A stretch of 64,000 nt of DNA from an uncultured Clostridia bacterium (GTDB lineage Bacteria; Bacillota; Clostridia; Christensenellales; CAMQZB01). Both the position numbers and the translations under genes were made by a program. The DNA is taken from positions 424 to 64,423 of the forward strand of contig CAZIPL010000004.1 in NCBI GenBank assembly GCA_964541255.1, written 5' to 3'. This document shows positions 22,805-28,426 of this stretch, piece by piece (position 1 is the first letter of the stretch; each line of letters opens with the position of its first letter). The notes under the pieces were generated by a model. It had not been told where the DNA came from and ran no database searches. It saw only the letters and a list, made by a program, of their open reading frames with translations.

Positions 22805-24460
22805 ATGATGAAAAAAGTATTTGCAGTTTTGCTCGCAGTCGTTCTTCTTTTGTCTTGCGGATTATTGTCCGCTTGTCAGAAAGACGATAGTGACGGAGTA
22901 ATCACGGTTTGGCTTTACGGTGACGATTTGAATTATTATCCCGATTATAATTCAAATCCTATCGTTACTACTATTGAGAAGAAGTTCGGCGTGGACATTC
23001 AGTTCCAGATCCCTGCGCTCGGAAGTGAAAGCGATAACTTCAACCTTATGCTCGGAACGGGCGATTATACCGACGTAATATCTCTTGCGTATTCTCCCGA
23101 TACGGCTGCGGTTCTTTATGAAGACGGAGTTATCGTCGATATCGCACCTTACTTAGAGGAATATATGCCTAACTATTGGAAATATCTCAACGATAACCCC
23201 GAGGCTAAGGCTGCTATAACGGACGACGAAGGACATATTTTCAACATCTTGACGGCGTCTAAAACCGAAGACGAAACGATGTGGGGCGGACTTGTTTATC
23301 GTCGCGACATCATCGAGACCATGACCGGTGGATATGTATCTTTCCCGAGCGGAAACGAAGAGCCTACGACCATCGAAGATTGGGAATATATGCTCGGACT
23401 TTTCCAGATGTATTTCGAAGCTGCTAAGCTTAACGGCGGAAGCGCAGACTATGCATGCCTTATTCTTCCTTACAACGGATATTTCTACGGCGGCGAGCTT
23501 ATCTCGGGCTTCGGAATCGGAACCGCTGCGATAGCTGTCGAAAACGGTAACGTATATTTGGGCGCAACGAGAAACGAGTTCAGAAATTATCTTGAAAAGA
23601 TGCACGAATGGTACGAAAAAGGCTGGATTTATCAAGATTTCGCGTCGAGAGTTAACGATTCGTTCTATCTCCCCAATACGGCTTTGACATACGGCAATGC
23701 CGCTGGTATTTGGTACGGAATCGCAGGCGCTCAGGCGGGTTCGGCTATGAGTATGCCTCAATACGGCTTATACTATGACGTTCAGCCTCTCAGAACTCCT
23801 CTTGATACCGAACACGGCGTTACGGAATCTCACGCACTTTTGAATTGGACAAACTTCAGCTCGAGCAGCGGTTATGCAATTACGACAAAGTGCGGAAAAC
23901 AAGATATGTTAGACTTCATGACCGCAATGGATTGGCTTTTCACCGAAGAGGGCGGAATGATCGTAACGTTGGGTCTTACCGAAGAATATGCTAAGGATAA
24001 CGAAGTATATCAAAAGCTCGGTCTTGAAAAGGGCGTTTGGGGCTATAACGATGACGGTACGCTTTGGTTTGACGAAAGAGTTCGTGGCGAAAATGCGACT
24101 ATTGAAAACGGAGACCTCGTCGGAATCAGACTCCCCGGTCATAAACATCCCGAAATCGAAAAACAGTTTGCTGCCGAAATCGTTCTTAAGTGCGACGAAG
24201 TTTGGACGGAATGCGGAAGAGATTGGAATTATCCCGCAGAAATCGTACTCAATTCCGAACAGAACGAAGTTCACTCCGAGTATTATCAGAACATTATGGA
24301 CTGCATAGCGCAGTACGCACAGAAGTTCATTATGGGTACGCTTGAGCTTAACGACGCTAACTGGGCTAAGTTCCAGAACGCCCTCAAGACTTTCCACGTA
24401 GACGAATATGTCAAAGTATATCAGGAAGCATACGACAATTACGTTTCTAAGATGAACTAA
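22805..24460 (+). CDS. Large extracellular solute-binding lipoprotein (LplA/YtcQ-like, family 1)
   Basis: Lipobox GLLSAC follows MMKKVFAVLLAVVLLL. At about 550 aa it has the size typical of LplA-type oligosaccharide binders. Terminator at 24548-24577. ATG at 22808 is an alternative start. Confidence 0.8.
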   Translation: MMKKVFAVLLAVVLLLSCGLLSACQKDDSDGVITVWLYGDDLNYYPDYNSNPIVTTIEKKFGVDIQFQIPALGSESDNFNLMLGTGDYTDVISLAYSPDTAAVLYEDGVIVDIAPYLEEYMPNYWKYLNDNPEAKAAITDDEGHIFNILTASKTEDETMWGGLVYRRDIIETMTGGYVSFPSGNEEPTTIEDWEYMLGLFQMYFEAAKLNGGSADYACLILPYNGYFYGGELISGFGIGTAAIAVENGNVYLGATRNEFRNYLEKMHEWYEKGWIYQDFASRVNDSFYLPNTALTYGNAAGIWYGIAGAQAGSAMSMPQYGLYYDVQPLRTPLDTEHGVTESHALLNWTNFSSSSGYAITTKCGKQDMLDFMTAMDWLFTEEGGMIVTLGLTEEYAKDNEVYQKLGLEKGVWGYNDDGTLWFDERVRGENATIENGDLVGIRLPGHKHPEIEKQFAAEIVLKCDEVWTECGRDWNYPAEIVLNSEQNEVHSEYYQNIMDCIAQYAQKFIMGTLELNDANWAKFQNALKTFHVDEYVKVYQEAYDNYVSKMN

Positions 24461-24547
24461 TTGGCTATCTAAAAGCATTTTAATAGCTTTGATAAACTAA
24501 ACTAACTAAAAAGCAATTGAATGACTTTTTAACCTTAAACCCCTTGA

Positions 24548-24577
24548 AAAGGCACGGATTTTCTCCCGTGCCTTTTC
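24548..24577 (+). terminator. Intrinsic terminator
   Basis: AAAGGCACGG-loop-CCGTGCCTTT followed by TC. Confidence 0.7.
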
Positions 24578-24700
24578 GCATGCGTTTATACTTGGTTTTT
24601 AATTATGATAAACACTCATAGGGCGGTTTAACTTTCATTGAAAAAGGCTCCCCACAACGTAAAAGGAGCCTATAATAAGGATAGTTATTATTAAACCGAC

Positions 24701-24725
24701 GGCGGTAGCAGAGCCACCGCCCTAC
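24701..24725 (+). repeat. GGCGG-N-CCGCCCTAC module
   Basis: GGCGGTAGCAGAGCCACCGCCCTAC. Confidence 0.45.
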
Positions 24726-24820
24726 GTGTAGGAAAGATTGAAAGTTGTTTTAAACTTATATACTATCATTTACTCGTCATAAACATAACGTTAATACTAT
24801 TGAAATCATTCTTTAACCAG

Positions 24821-24846
24821 TAGGGCGGAGGCTTCTCATTGCCGCC
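24821..24846 (-). repeat. GGCGG-N-CCGCCCTA module, inverted orientation
   Basis: The reverse complement, GGCGGCAATGAGAAGCCTCCGCCCTA, differs from the 14468 copy at one position. A partial CTCATAGGGCGG lies at 24615-24626. Confidence 0.5.
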
Positions 24847-24859
24847 GAAATTAAAACAA

Positions 24860-24912
24860 GGCTCTCTTAGCAAGGGAGCCGGCTCGGCATCTCCGAAAGA
24901 CTAAAGGGATTG
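24860..24912 (+). repeat. Double-hairpin + AAAGGGATTG module (degenerate copy)
   Basis: GGCTCTCTT-AGC-AAGGGAGCC hairpin, a short TCGG...CCGA hairpin, then GACTAAAGGGATTG. Confidence 0.45.
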
Positions 24913-25082
24913 ACATATCGCCACGATAAAAACTTTTTTATGGGGCTGTCTGCGAAAAATTAAAGGCATTGACTATTGCCACGGCGATTGTGTAAAGTTA
25001 ACAAAAAATACGATCCCACCGACACGGCGTTATAGTGCCGTGTTACCCCCCCTTTGTGAAAAGGAGGTAGAGAAATAAGGAA

Positions 25083-25128
25083 GGCTCCCTTTGAAGGGAG
25101 CTGTCGCTATAAGGCGACTGAGGGATTG
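25083..25128 (+). repeat. Double-hairpin + TGAGGGATTG module (46 nt)
   Basis: GCTCCCT-TTGA-AGGGAGC, GTCGCT-ATAA-GGCGAC, TGAGGGATTG. It matches 44630-44675 at 44 of 46 positions. Confidence 0.6.
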
Positions 25129-25171
25129 TTGCCTATATTAAAAAATTAAATTTTTTTCCAAAATTACTTTT

Positions 25172-25411
25172 TCAAATCGAAAGATTGTCGTATAAAAACA
25201 AATCGGAAGAAAGGAATTCGCTCACCGACATATCGAATCCGTCGGCGATAATCACCAATGTTTTCAAGGTAACGCCCTTTGTTTTGCCTTTCATAATGCT
25301 TTTGAGTGTTTCGTGCGAAAGCCCGCACTTTTGTTCGAGCTTGTATTGCGTCATGTTGCACTTTTTAAGAAGCTCCTTTGTTCTTATGGTGACTGCTTCG
25401 TTAATGTGCAT
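25172..25411 (-). CDS. XRE-family (Cro/CI-type) HTH transcriptional regulator, 79 aa
   Basis: HTH segment MTQYKLEQKCGLSHETLKSIMKGK. RBS AAGGAG. It is divergently oriented to the sipW-type cassette. Confidence 0.8.
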   Translation of the reverse strand: MHINEAVTIRTKELLKKCNMTQYKLEQKCGLSHETLKSIMKGKTKGVTLKTLVIIADGFDMSVSEFLSSDLFLYDNLSI

Positions 25412-25425
25412 AATTATTTTTCTCC

Positions 25426-25447
25426 TTATAACATTTGTCAGTTATAA
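25426..25447. promoter_or_regulatory. Inverted repeat TTATAAC-N8-GTTATAA next to the XRE gene start (candidate operator)
   Basis: Perfect 7-bp arms at 25426-25432 and 25441-25447, 15 nt upstream of the XRE ATG on the minus strand. The context is AT-rich, so chance occurrence is possible. Confidence 0.3.
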
Positions 25448-25496
25448 GTGTATAATTATTTATTTTAATATTACGGGTTAAATTTCACCCAAATGC

Positions 25497-25526
25497 TTGA
25501 CAATAGGCGTTTGCAAGATATACAAT
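25497..25526 (+). promoter_or_regulatory. Putative sigma-A promoter of the cargo-sipW-cargo unit
   Basis: TTGACA (25497-25502), then TATACA or TACAAT at 16-18 nt spacing (25519-25526). This would give a leader of about 215 nt. Confidence 0.45.
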
Positions 25527-25744
25527 GAGTTAAAAATAACCCATAATTCGATATTATGTTACAAAGCGAAACAACTCGACTTGTGTGCATATATAAAACG
25601 CTTTTATTTTGAATGTGTCGATGTTTCGCCTTTCGATAGGCTTTTGTTGAAGATTTTATTTAGATGGGCATATAAGTTTCAGATTTATTTAGACCTTTTG
25701 GCAAGTGAAGCTTGCTTGAAATAAAAAGGAAAGGAGAAAAGAAT

Positions 25745-26305
25745 ATGAAAAAACTAAGCGTTATTATCGCATTATGCCTCGTTCTCACGATCGGCGGCGT
25801 CTATGCAACATTTAGCTATGCGACGGAAAATGTTGACTCTAAATCTGGAGATGTCGGAATAACACTGGCGCAAGCTGTAACTGATACTCCTAAAGGAACA
25901 ATAAATATGTTGTTAACTGATAATCCGGGAATTACTATTGACGATGCGGGTTATCTTGAAAAAGGCGATGGGTATCAGACTTATGTAGTTGGCGGACATG
26001 TAAATGGAACGTTAAAGTTGAGCTTTACGCCTAACTCTGGTTCTGGCACAACTCATATTAAAGTAAAAGTGACTGTAACCACATCGTTTGAAAATAGTTA
26101 TAATGATGACGGAACTAATAAACGAATACTTAATTTAAGCGAATACACTAATGATGCTCTATTGTCAGAAATTACTATCCCCCTATCCGATTTAATTCAA
26201 ATAAATGGTGACATTACACTTTCAACATATAACAAATATCAAAACTATAGTGACGCATTAGGAAATAATCCGACAATCACCATTACGGTTGAAGAGGTTG
26301 AATAA
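25745..26305 (+). CDS. Secreted protein of unknown family, putative SipW substrate (cargo A)
   Basis: ATG at 25745 follows AAAGGAAAGGAGAAAAG. The N-terminus MKKLSVIIALCLVLTIGGVYATFSYATE is a signal-peptide-like h-region ending in the GGVYA/TFSY motif shared with cargo C. The mature part is Thr/Asn/Gly-rich and beta-like. Confidence 0.6.
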   Translation: MKKLSVIIALCLVLTIGGVYATFSYATENVDSKSGDVGITLAQAVTDTPKGTINMLLTDNPGITIDDAGYLEKGDGYQTYVVGGHVNGTLKLSFTPNSGSGTTHIKVKVTVTTSFENSYNDDGTNKRILNLSEYTNDALLSEITIPLSDLIQINGDITLSTYNKYQNYSDALGNNPTITITVEEVE

Positions 26306-26352
26306 TCAGAATAGCTTGTTTTTTTAAGGTCAATACAAATAAAATCTAAACT

Positions 26353-27414
26353 ATGACCGATTTTGAAATATACGTATTAATACTCTGCGGAATTGTGTTG
26401 GCGTTGTTGACGGCAACCTTTTCGTGGTTAATCTCGTATATTTACAGACTTCAAATCAAAGGCATTCGAGGCGGTTTGTTCGACGTCGAGATTGCGGAGG
26501 AGTTCGAGCGTATCGAAAGGCAAAAGACTCGTTCCAAGGCGGCTCACGTTATTGTCGATATAATCGTCCCGAGTATCATTTGCATTGCATTGGTCATAGT
26601 TTTTGCTTTTTCGTTGAGCGTTGACATAAACAAAAACAAAAAGGTCGGCGTAGTGCCGCATTTGAAAGTCGTTCAAAGCGGTTCTATGGCGATAAAACAC
26701 CAATCGAACGAATACCTTGTCGAGAATAATCTCGACGATCAGCTGCAAATATTCGACGTTATCGTCATCGATTCGCTCCCGAAAGAAGAGGACTTGAAAA
26801 TATACGACATCGTCGTATATAAAGATTTCACCGACGGAGCGCTCGTCGTTCACAGAATTATCGAAATAAACATCGCCGAAGACGACAGCGGCGAAACGTG
26901 GTATTTGTTCAAAGGGGACGCCAACCAATATGCCGACAGATACCCCGTCAGATATTCCGATATGATAGGAATATATAGCGGAACGCGTATTCCGTACGTC
27001 GGCTCGTTCGTTACCTTTATGAATTCGCCCGCGGGGTATTTGTGCGTACTTCTCGTTATAGGCGTTCTTGCCGTTATGCCGATTATAGATAAAAAGCTCG
27101 ACAAGGCGAAAGCCGAAAGGTTCGGAACTTTTGAATTGAACGGAAACTTTACCGACGACGCTCAAGCTTTTGAAGATAACGAAGCAAGCGTTGAAGACGA
27201 TATGGATAATATTCAGACGACAAAGCAAACTCAAAGCGATTTTGTCGAACAAATTATTATCACTTCGGGTATGACGAGGTTAGATAATATCAATGATGTA
27301 AACATAGAAGCTGACGAAACGCGTGAAGAGTATGTGGGCGACTCTATCGTTGAGACTGACGAAATAAGCGTAAGTAACTTAAGTGAAGTTGACGACGACG
27401 ATTTTGTCGATTAG
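26353..27414 (+). CDS. SipW-type signal peptidase I (S26B, ER/archaeal-like Ser-His type) with N- and C-terminal extensions
   Basis: VQSGSMA (residues 109-112 are SGSM), LVVHRII (His167), LFKGDAN (G188-D189) and a C-terminal TM (about 226-245) parallel the SGSMEP / THRI / KGDNN / C-terminal TM pattern of B. subtilis SipW as I recall it. No clear SD precedes ATG 26353. Confidence 0.85.
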   Translation: MTDFEIYVLILCGIVLALLTATFSWLISYIYRLQIKGIRGGLFDVEIAEEFERIERQKTRSKAAHVIVDIIVPSIICIALVIVFAFSLSVDINKNKKVGVVPHLKVVQSGSMAIKHQSNEYLVENNLDDQLQIFDVIVIDSLPKEEDLKIYDIVVYKDFTDGALVVHRIIEINIAEDDSGETWYLFKGDANQYADRYPVRYSDMIGIYSGTRIPYVGSFVTFMNSPAGYLCVLLVIGVLAVMPIIDKKLDKAKAERFGTFELNGNFTDDAQAFEDNEASVEDDMDNIQTTKQTQSDFVEQIIITSGMTRLDNINDVNIEADETREEYVGDSIVETDEISVSNLSEVDDDDFVD

Positions 27415-27522
27415 GGCAACGAATAAAGCAACATATGATTTGCTGAAGAATCCAAGTTCTTGGCGCTCAAACTTGACGTAAAACAAATACTTCGAAAGTT
27501 GTTGCAATAAAAAAGTATCGAT

Positions 27523-28221
27523 ATGATAAAAAGAAACGTAAAAATCTATATATTTTTATTTATCTTATTGATAGTTTCCGTCTATTCCGTCGGAAGCGTT
27601 TTCGCCGTGTTCGCATATCCCGAGGGGCGCGCGGAATCCGCTACGGACAGTTTGACGGCTGTTCTTGGCAACTTTGGCTTCAAGACCGACGAAGATATCG
27701 CACATATGATAGCGGATAACGTTATTGAAAGCCTTAATAACAAAGACTCAAAGCTAAATGCCGCAATAGAAAGCAGAAAGAATTTTGCTAATACGATCGG
27801 TAATAAGGACGCTTGGCATACTGGCGGAGGTTTGGGATCTTGGGTCGGTTTTGCAAATATTAACACAGAGGTTTTAGGAACTGGCGCTGATACCGACGGT
27901 TGGTCGTATATCATTTATTATCGCGATGGGGCTGACGGAAACACTTATATTCTTTATACGACAAATTGTGAGATTACTAATGAAAATGTAGAGAATAAGG
28001 ATTATGTATATCCGATATATAAAACGATTATGACAAGAACAAGTACAACGCTTGCGGACGAAACGATTGTTTATTCCGATTTTGTCGCAGGAGAAACGAA
28101 AGTCGGATATTCGATGAGTGCATATTATTCACATTCGCTCACGGGAAGTTCATTTATTCAATCTCCTTCTTGGGATCCGACATATTGGTATCCCGGCGAA
28201 CCGCCGACTATGACAAATTGA
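27523..28221 (+). CDS. Secreted protein of unknown family, putative SipW substrate (cargo C)
   Basis: The N-terminus MIKRNVKIYIFLFILLIVSVYSVGSVFAVFAYPEG carries the same G-[GS]-V-[YF]-A-[TV]-F-[SA]-Y motif as cargo A. The C-terminus is aromatic-rich (SPSWDPTYWYPGEPP). No clear SD. Terminator at 28387-28426. Confidence 0.6.
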   Translation: MIKRNVKIYIFLFILLIVSVYSVGSVFAVFAYPEGRAESATDSLTAVLGNFGFKTDEDIAHMIADNVIESLNNKDSKLNAAIESRKNFANTIGNKDAWHTGGGLGSWVGFANINTEVLGTGADTDGWSYIIYYRDGADGNTYILYTTNCEITNENVENKDYVYPIYKTIMTRTSTTLADETIVYSDFVAGETKVGYSMSAYYSHSLTGSSFIQSPSWDPTYWYPGEPPTMTN

Positions 28222-28386
28222 GTAAAATCGCAATCATACTATCTTATTCATTGATAGTCTCACAATTAAGTTTTAAGACAATCAATTTGCAACTAAAGTT
28301 AAACTCGCTCATAATGCACGAAGTCTAAAACTTGCTTGCAATGGCTTATGACTTCGCAGCATTTCAACTTTTACAAAGAAATCTAT

Positions 28387-28426
28387 CGTGCCTTAAAGGT
28401 TAGTGCTTTTAAGGCGCGATTTTTTA
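28387..28426 (+). terminator. Intrinsic terminator of the sipW-type cassette
   Basis: CGTGCCTTAAA / TTTAAGGCGCG 11-bp stem followed by ATTTTTT, 165 nt after the cargo C stop. Confidence 0.7.

Follow-up and report, generated by a model that had tools for sequence, protein, structure and literature searches.

A conserved cassette encoding an S26B signal peptidase and two secreted proteins in gut Firmicutes, a probable cousin of the Bacillus biofilm-fibre system

Organization of the locus

We analysed a 64-kb stretch of contig CAZIPL010000004.1 from an uncultured Clostridia bacterium (the whole stretch is called the window). The region under study, positions 25172-28426, holds a cassette in which a signal peptidase gene lies between genes for two small secreted proteins, here cargo1 and cargo2, and a neighbouring gene for an XRE-family helix-turn-helix (HTH) protein. 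All four open reading frames (ORFs) were found at the places given by the original prediction, which had been made from the sequence alone. The XRE protein (79 aa) is encoded on the minus strand at 25172-25411 and matches the Pfam families HTH_26 (3.3e-9) and HTH_3 (1.5e-8). The remaining three genes are on the plus strand. Cargo1 (25745-26305) begins with an ATG after a strong GGAG Shine-Dalgarno site and is likely the major product; it had been described as a secreted protein of 187 aa, of which the secretion signal was upheld and the length was corrected to 186 aa from this ATG. It is followed by a 353-aa signal peptidase I of the S26B (SipW/archaeal/SEC11) type at 26353-27414, recognised by its TIGR02228 match. 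Cargo2 (27523-28221), an ORF of 232 aa that belongs to the type A defined below, is likely an accessory product, and its homologues lie directly 3' of the peptidase gene in most loci.

A sigma-70-like promoter, TTGACA-18-TACAAT, is located on the plus strand at 25497-25526, ~220 nt 5' of cargo1. It agrees with the consensus at 11 of 12 positions and is the best such site of the region. After cargo2 the operon is closed by a plus-strand intrinsic terminator at 28385-28420, a 16-bp stem followed by a T run, with which the end coordinate chosen in the original prediction (28426) coincides. A riboswitch or other structured leader 5' of cargo1 was considered and rejected: the ~210-nt leader has no Rfam match, and its folding is not unusual (z = -0.61 against shuffled sequence).

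Both cargos end their signal peptides with a TasA-type cleavage region

The strings GGVYATFSY in cargo1 and GSVFAVFAY in cargo2, which had been singled out as a shared N-terminal motif, are both present after a hydrophobic N-terminus and follow the form G-[GS]-V-[YF]-A|x-F-x-Y. When the six-frame translation of the window was scanned with the looser pattern [GSA][GSA][VTAI][YFW][AGS]x[FW]x[YFD], these two sites were the only matches, each ending the N-terminal hydrophobic segment of one of the two genes that flank the peptidase. Since the motif is found on peptidase-flanking ORFs in 78 of 80 related loci, the likeness between cargo1 and cargo2 is not due to chance.

The predicted signal peptide of cargo1 spans residues 1-21 (25745-25807), with cleavage at VYA21|T22FSYA and a predicted mature N-terminus of TFSYATENVDSK; that of cargo2 spans residues 1-28 (27523-27606), with cleavage at VFA28|V29FAYP, so that the mature protein is expected to start with VFAYPEGR. 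In a 150-member alignment, the most conserved positions of the entire cargo1 protein were T15, G17, G18, V19, Y20, A21, T22, W/F23, Y25 and A26, that is, the cleavage region and the residues next to it. Valine occupies position -3 in 142 of 148 cargo1 sequences and alanine position -1 in 147 of 148. This is the pattern of signal peptidase I sites and predicts the A21|T22 and A28|V29 cleavages, here within a family-specific c-region, T-[IV]-G-G-V-[YF]-A.

The cleavage region had also been said to line up with that of Bacillus subtilis TasA, and profile comparison bore this out. In hhalign the cargo1 family and TasA aligned over the signal peptide alone, with GGVYA|TW placed on GGTWA|AF. With 70-residue N-termini, TasA scored 31.3 (E 3.6e-5), and seven unrelated signal peptides, serving only as generic controls, scored at most 20.9. 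The TasA sequence used is an exact match to PDB entry 8AUR, in which the mature chain starts at A28.

The gene order is conserved among gut Firmicutes

By word-based search, no more than four relatives were found for cargo1, and none for cargo2. On the contigs of all four, the genes stood in the order cargo1-peptidase-cargo2, and the genes next to them, guaA and pyrG for example, were unrelated. A scan of genomes with the single peptidase sequence found nothing; with the peptidase alignment, 70 further loci were recovered, all in metagenome-assembled genomes (MAGs) of gut origin (human, ruminant and other). Taxa assigned to them included Christensenellaceae, Acutalibacteraceae, Faecousia, Scatosoma, Erysipelotrichaceae, Coprobacillus and Anaeroplasmataceae. 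The triad is thus kept in about 80 loci of gut and rumen Firmicutes MAGs, in unrelated neighbourhoods, and the substrate-peptidase-substrate order that had been compared with the Bacillus locus proved to be conserved.

We clustered all ORFs within 4 kb of the peptidase, and only two components were conserved: the peptidase itself (80 loci) and the motif-bearing ORFs (146 proteins from 78 loci). One motif-bearing ORF of 180-250 aa lies directly 5' of the peptidase gene, and a second, of 200-524 aa, usually lies directly 3' of it where the contig allows; at this second junction, stop and start codons often overlap. A conserved regulator or third partner, such as a sortase or type IV pilus genes, was sought by this clustering and by a Pfam scan of upstream ORFs, and was rejected. 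With only two conserved neighbours, and no XRE homologue near the other loci, the cassette is, as judged from gene content and order, a portable three-gene unit. A Shine-Dalgarno run of at least 5 nt precedes 84% of cargo1, 51% of cargo2 and 21% of peptidase genes, a ranking that fits an abundant subunit produced together with low-level accessory proteins.

The peptidase is related to SipW and carries additional segments

The assignment of the enzyme to the SipW-type Ser-His S26B peptidases was confirmed. It scores 70.3 bits on TIGR02228 (sigpep_I_arch, signal peptidase I of archaeal type), above the cut-off of 51.85, and 65.9 bits on the equivalog model of B. subtilis SipW (NF046067), below the cut-off of 190; it is therefore related to SipW without being an orthologue. 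Most of its relatives stay under the TIGR02228 cut-off (36-44 bits; L001, L030 and L034), which makes the family a divergent branch. In the peptidase alignment (A5), which covers five relatives over residues 1-256, S109, S111 and M112 (the SGSM box), H167, R168, I169, G188, D189 and A190 are invariant. Ser111 (SGSM), His167 (VHRII) and Asp189 (GDAN) are the predicted catalytic residues. Searched with a profile built from A5, the PDB yielded human SEC11C and SEC11A, which were matched at the His and GDxN boxes. By its motifs, the protein is an S26B enzyme of the endoplasmic reticulum (ER)/archaeal/SipW type with an intact Ser/His pair.

Hydropathy suggests three transmembrane (TM) segments, at about residues 6-30, 66-90 and 224-246, with the catalytic domain between the second and the third. 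The positive-inside rule places this domain outside the cell; the basic loop (31-66) would be cytoplasmic, as would the beginning of the tail. The C-terminus of the window peptidase (27121-27411) is a 97-aa acidic tail with 29 D/E and 3 K/R, which is probably disordered and cytoplasmic and which stands where relatives have a repeat domain. These long homologues end in one, two or three copies of a ~110-aa repeat that would lie in the cytoplasm. The repeats are recognised by the pattern ...KTLNAYL...YENTKY...YPMRVKVTSERQ..W..EL... and occur at L034:6001-8283, L030:6001-8052, L056:11-1864, L045:2522-4354, L040:3169-4950 and L036:6001-7731; a single diverged copy is present in the L001 homologue. 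Searches of Pfam, NCBIfam and the PDB gave no match to the repeat. A signal peptidase fused to a cytoplasmic repeat domain is unusual.

The cargos belong to families outside the annotated ones

Mature cargo1 is predicted to be an acidic protein of 165 aa (17.7 kDa, pI 4.3) with no cysteine, and mature cargo2 to be one of 204 aa (22.5 kDa, pI 4.4). A cargo1 profile searched against 1.84 billion representatives recovered 759 clusters (50% identity) at E <= 1e-3 and 580 at E <= 1e-10. The window cargos have no Pfam or NCBIfam match. Among 150 cargo1 representatives no consistent Pfam or NCBIfam family appeared, and Peptidase_M73, TIGR04088-90 and the TasA equivalog NF046066 were absent; a Pfam scan of 67 cargo2 relatives gave no Peptidase_M73 match. 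Sequence-profile searches of the PDB with the cargo1 and cargo2 alignments (A1, A2, A6, A7) gave nothing meaningful, and hhalign aligned no part of mature cargo1 with TasA beyond the signal peptide. These results, together with negative PHROG searches, agree with the earlier statement that the mature cargos have no recognisable TasA or camelysin (M73) features, and the Pfam, NCBIfam and PDB searches returned no confident match to a characterised non-secreted family either. A literature search with the motif string and the related systems found papers on TasA, BsaA and archaeal filaments only, none of them describing the cargo family.

Cargo2 occurs in two types. Type A is found in 47 loci, including the window, and type B in 22 loci, with an extra N-terminal domain of ~115 aa; the two are related (hhalign 87.6%, E 3.5e-6). 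Save for occasional C-terminal LRR_5 (BspA-type) or FIVAR modules, cargo2 has no Pfam or PDB relatives. Cargo2 is a modular protein, with BspA-type LRR_5 repeats at the end of three variants and a FIVAR domain in one; the modular loci are L041, L062, L068 (with a 524-aa cargo2) and other type-B loci, for example L043:6794-7906. Locus L047 holds two tandem cargo2 paralogues. What cargo1 and cargo2 have in common is the signal peptide and the first ~20-22 mature residues only (hhalign E 8e-4).

An AlphaFold2 model of cargo1, built from a five-sequence alignment, reached a mean predicted local distance difference test (pLDDT) of 72.9 and a predicted template modelling score (pTM) of 0.67. It shows a domain at about residues 34-186 that is all-beta apart from a single short helix and has pLDDT blocks of 77-89. 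The stretch 12-33, which takes in the last part of the signal peptide and twelve residues at the start of the mature protein, has a pLDDT below 50 and is predicted to be disordered. A Foldseek search of this model against BFVD gave no match at E <= 1e-3. The best BFVD match was A0A8S5LX50, an uncharacterised 283-aa protein from a gut 'Siphoviridae sp.' contig (E 1.1e-3, probability 0.99, TM-score 0.26).

The XRE gene is a local neighbour of the cassette

The original prediction had likened the divergent XRE gene to sinR, and this part of the comparison with the Bacillus locus did not hold. The 79-aa protein is a bare HTH that matches only Cro/C1-type HTH models (residues 12-68); no SinR-type C-terminal multimerisation domain (SinR/SinI) was matched, and there is no room for a second domain. 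An XRE homologue was found within 4 kb of the peptidase in 0 of the other 79 loci. The Pfam scan of upstream ORFs placed HTH_3 genes 5' of the cassette in 5 of 57 loci; thioredoxins, integrases and many other, unrelated genes were found there as well. Furthermore, B. subtilis sinR is convergent to tasA and not divergent from tapA. The XRE gene is thus a local neighbour rather than a conserved component, and may at most encode a local regulator or repressor in this genome. A possible site of action lies between its start codon and the cargo promoter, where two direct repeats GTGYATAATTATTT, assigned to neither strand, are found at 25406-25432 and 25448-25474 (74% identity, 42-bp spacing). The repeats have the form GTG[CT]ATAATTATTT and, judging from their position, may be an operator for the XRE protein.

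The cassette interrupts a sugar-utilisation cluster

The carbohydrate-utilisation setting that had been noted for this region was also found here. The genes around the cassette encode an AraC regulator and a MalK-type ABC transporter with permeases and a lipoprotein, followed by GH3, GH43, PFK and LacI, and the cassette interrupts this ABC-transporter/GH3/GH43 cluster. The G+C content is 39-40% over 24-28 kb (window 24001-28000), compared with 42-47% in the nearby sugar-utilisation genes. The low G+C content and the interruption of the sugar cluster both fit acquisition by horizontal transfer. A phage-type integrase gene is found immediately 5' of the cassette in 3 of 57 related loci. A phage origin of the cassette was rejected: the cargos and the peptidase have no PHROG matches, and pattern scans of IMG/VR found no relatives of cargo1 or of the peptidase.

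Between the ABC-transporter lipoprotein gene and the XRE gene there is a spacer of 700 bp (24461-25171) that is poor in ORFs. Besides other inverted repeats, it holds several G+C-rich hairpins that read GGCTC...GGAGCC, with 3 strand-specific matches at 2 sites compared with 0.1 expected, and it has no Rfam match. An island inserted here may have left it as a scar or junction. The lipoprotein itself (22805-24460, 551 aa) has a lipobox-like LSAC and lies 3' of two ABC permease genes, in the slot expected for a solute-binding protein; it has no Pfam match at E <= 1e-5.

A model for cargo processing and assembly

Taken together, the sequence evidence supports a cassette made of a dedicated S26B signal peptidase and two cognate Sec substrates with a family-specific, TasA-type cleavage site. 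By analogy, we take the cassette to be a probable, so far undescribed cousin of the fibre system of Bacillus biofilms. We propose that a dedicated peptidase acts on a major and an accessory secreted substrate whose products probably form a surface polymer, and we put the probability of this reading at about 55%. Transcription from the sigma-70-type promoter would give one transcript of cargo1, peptidase and cargo2 that ends at the strong terminator, a step supported by the sequence, as is the provision of both cargos with short Sec-type signal peptides ending in T-[IV]-G-G-V-[YF]-A. The Ser/His peptidase, predicted to be membrane-bound with its catalytic domain at the outer face, would cut after Ala21 of cargo1 and Ala28 of cargo2. 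Cleavage would free a conserved aromatic N-terminus, x-[FW]-x-Y-A. Cargo1, which is acidic, beta-rich and preceded by the strongest ribosome-binding site, would be the major subunit of an extracellular or cell-surface assembly, and could polymerise by insertion of its free N-terminal strand into the next subunit, as in TasA, BsaA and the archaeal bundling pili. Indirect hints of such strand insertion are the disordered start of mature cargo1 in its model, the N-terminal segment that it has in common with cargo2, and the identical +2 residue in the two cargos of each locus. Cargo2 may play a TapA-like part as nucleator, anchor or tip/adhesin, and in this genome only, the adjacent XRE protein might repress the operon.

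The analogy draws on published work. TasA and TapA have their mature N-terminal segment in common and not their globular domains; the start of TapA is similar to the donor strand of TasA (residues 28-38) and has been proposed to contribute the first strand when fibres form (PMC9674648, PMC10151520). TasA is abundant relative to TapA and SipW (PMC10151520). In the BsaA superfamily structure is conserved while sequence is highly divergent, and paralogues are often found in operons with signal peptidases (10.1101/2024.11.04.621531).

Several observations weigh against a surface polymer built in this manner. Cleavage, secretion and polymerisation of the cargos are predictions drawn from sequence and analogy. 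On TIGR04088, the model for SipW-dependent-type signal peptides that the original prediction had named as a check (cut-off 19 bits, TasA control 38 bits), the cargos score at most 12.9 bits, the value of the family-consensus N-terminus; the N-termini of the window cargos gave no match at E <= 10, and the 150 cargo1 members none at E <= 0.1. As the cut-off is not reached, the signal is TasA-like in design yet outside the curated class. The two cargos of a locus always agree at +2 (13 loci F/F, 35 W/W, 0 mixed), but on the peptidase tree this co-variation comes down to only about two independent switches, and the specificity of the peptidase could explain it equally well. A peptidase column that tracks the F/W state of the cargos was looked for and none was found, so that the co-variation can be assigned neither to the enzyme nor to the acceptor. 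Positions +1 to +5 may be conserved because the peptidase recognises them, and not because they donate a strand. Of the anchoring motifs LPXTG, SLH and cell-wall-binding repeats, none was seen.

The structural comparison points the same way. In a Foldseek search against the PDB, the cargo1 model, of moderate quality, had no match at E <= 1e-3 (best TM-score 0.34), and TasA (5OF1, 8AUR), donor-strand pilins, archaeal bundling pili, Sulfolobus threads and Pyrodictium cannulae were all outside the top 50. A TasA-like acceptor groove is thus without support. Membership of cargo1 in the TasA fold is not supported by the model, whose modest confidence leaves room for such membership. The AlphaFold2 model of cargo2 was unusable (pLDDT 40.8) and permits no statement on its fold.

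These points bear on the other explanations to different degrees. The same enzyme-substrate logic could operate with no polymer at all, the cargos being secreted or surface proteins that stay monomeric, for instance adhesins, binding proteins or antimicrobial factors, with a dedicated peptidase needed because the unusual c-region would be a poor substrate for the housekeeping LepB-type enzyme. All of the processing evidence fits this equally well, no feature specific to fibres has been shown, the cargo1 model is unlike known fibre subunits, and some cargo2 variants carry adhesin-like modules. We nevertheless think it improbable on balance, because a small, highly expressed subunit and an accessory protein that have only their N-terminal mature segment in common are hard to reconcile with unrelated monomers, and because the substrates of dedicated S26B peptidases in the characterised cases known to us are fibre or matrix proteins (PMC9674648; 10.1101/2024.11.04.621531).

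It is less likely still that the cargos are extremely diverged members of the TasA/BsaA/camelysin superfamily, with the same immunoglobulin-like/jelly-roll fold and ancestry, which would make them a deep branch and not a new family. Their TasA-type signal peptide agrees with such a descent, as do the sub-threshold score of the cargo1 N-terminus on TIGR04090 (BsaA family, 13 bits) and the conservation of BsaA superfamily structure despite highly divergent sequence (10.1101/2024.11.04.621531). Yet 0 of 150 cargo1 and 0 of 67 cargo2 members match Peptidase_M73, TIGR04088-90 or NF046066, the hhalign comparison with TasA stops at the signal peptide, the PDB profile searches were empty, and TasA (5OF1, 8AUR) is outside a Foldseek top 50 in which no match is significant. 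Very improbable, finally, is that the N-termini are uncleaved signal anchors and the peptidase homologue an assembly factor or chaperone, a role comparable to that of inactive SipA/LepA in streptococcal pilus islands: the N-terminal TM segment, the cytoplasmic loop and the variable tails, with repeats in relatives, are indeed unusual for a plain signal peptidase, but Ser111, His167, Asp189 and their motifs are invariant across the family, and the near-invariant V at -3 and A at -1 have the look of a cleaved site.

Under the preferred reading of a dedicated peptidase and two substrates that form a surface polymer, the maturation logic is a known one, and what is new is the cargo families, which are unannotated and of a probably different fold, and the elaborated peptidase. 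The original suggestion of a new family of proteins processed by a SipW-type peptidase is thus a fair description, given that no annotated family and no TasA match in Foldseek was found. A more specific proposal, which we offer tentatively as one joint claim, is that of an unrecognised class of Gram-positive surface filament. Its TasA-unrelated subunit of new fold would assemble by donor-strand exchange from a TapA-like starter, and its S26B peptidase, with extra TM and cytoplasmic domains, would couple processing to an internal signal or partner, in uncultured gut and rumen Firmicutes that include Christensenellaceae, Oscillospiraceae, Acutalibacteraceae, Erysipelotrichales and others.

Comparison with known systems

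Dedicated SipW-type peptidases and their substrates build the biofilm scaffolds of Bacillus and Clostridium perfringens, and similar fibres exist in archaea. The cassette extends this dedicated-peptidase logic to a large cargo family (759 clusters) that is unnamed in databases and is carried by gut and rumen Firmicutes that are abundant and, for the most part, uncultured. If its products are surface fibres or adhesins, they would be candidates for commensal aggregation, for attachment to mucus, plant fibre or partner cells, and for host interaction; if they are fibres, a new subunit fold would be added to the few chaperone-free donor-strand polymers.

The closest likeness is to B. subtilis tapA-sipW-tasA. 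In both systems an S26B Ser/His peptidase is encoded between two presumed substrates, and a cleavage region of the form GG-[TV]-aromatic-A|x-[FW] accompanies a SipW-type peptidase gene. In both, the substrates are alike in their mature N-terminal segment and not in their globular domains, and one product is abundant and the other accessory, as suggested here by Shine-Dalgarno strength. The differences are that the mature cargos resemble TasA and TapA neither in sequence nor, as far as detectable, in fold, that no SinR-type regulator is conserved, and that the hosts are anaerobic gut Firmicutes represented by MAGs only. The peptidases differ as well. SipW has about 190 aa and two TM segments. 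The enzyme described here exceeds it by ~160 aa and carries an additional TM segment at its N-terminus, a loop on the cytoplasmic side, ~16 residues inserted between the Ser and His boxes, and a tail in the cytoplasm.

The sipW-bsaA-bsaB-bsaC operon of C. perfringens, in which BsaA forms a matrix polymer with intermolecular isopeptide bonds, is also clostridial and likewise combines a SipW-type peptidase with two small secreted proteins, beta-rich and paralogue-like, that have a disordered N-terminal donor segment. In contrast to the cassette, its peptidase gene comes first and it has a third cargo with a VWA domain; the cargos described here have no TIGR04090 match. No Asn-Glu-Lys triad stands out in the cargo1 conservation table, to which no dedicated test for such a triad was applied. 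The archaeal donor-strand filaments (Pyrobaculum bundling pili AbpA, Sulfolobus threads and Pyrodictium cannulae) also consist of small beta-sandwich subunits with class-I signal peptides that are processed by signal peptidase I, and the peptidase of the cassette is itself of the archaeal/ER type. They differ in being absent from the Foldseek top 50, and the system described here is bacterial, with a peptidase that is dedicated and co-encoded.

Finally, the cargo signals agree with the TIGR04088 class in architecture and in their association with a neighbouring SipW-type peptidase. At +4, where Asp is typical of TasA and CalY, the cargos have Tyr; their h-region is shorter (cleavage at residue 21), and their scores are below the cut-off of the class. 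The invariant string T-[IV]-G-G-V-Y-A|T-[WF]-x-Y offers a simple marker for annotating cargo genes and for seeking mature N-termini in metaproteomes.

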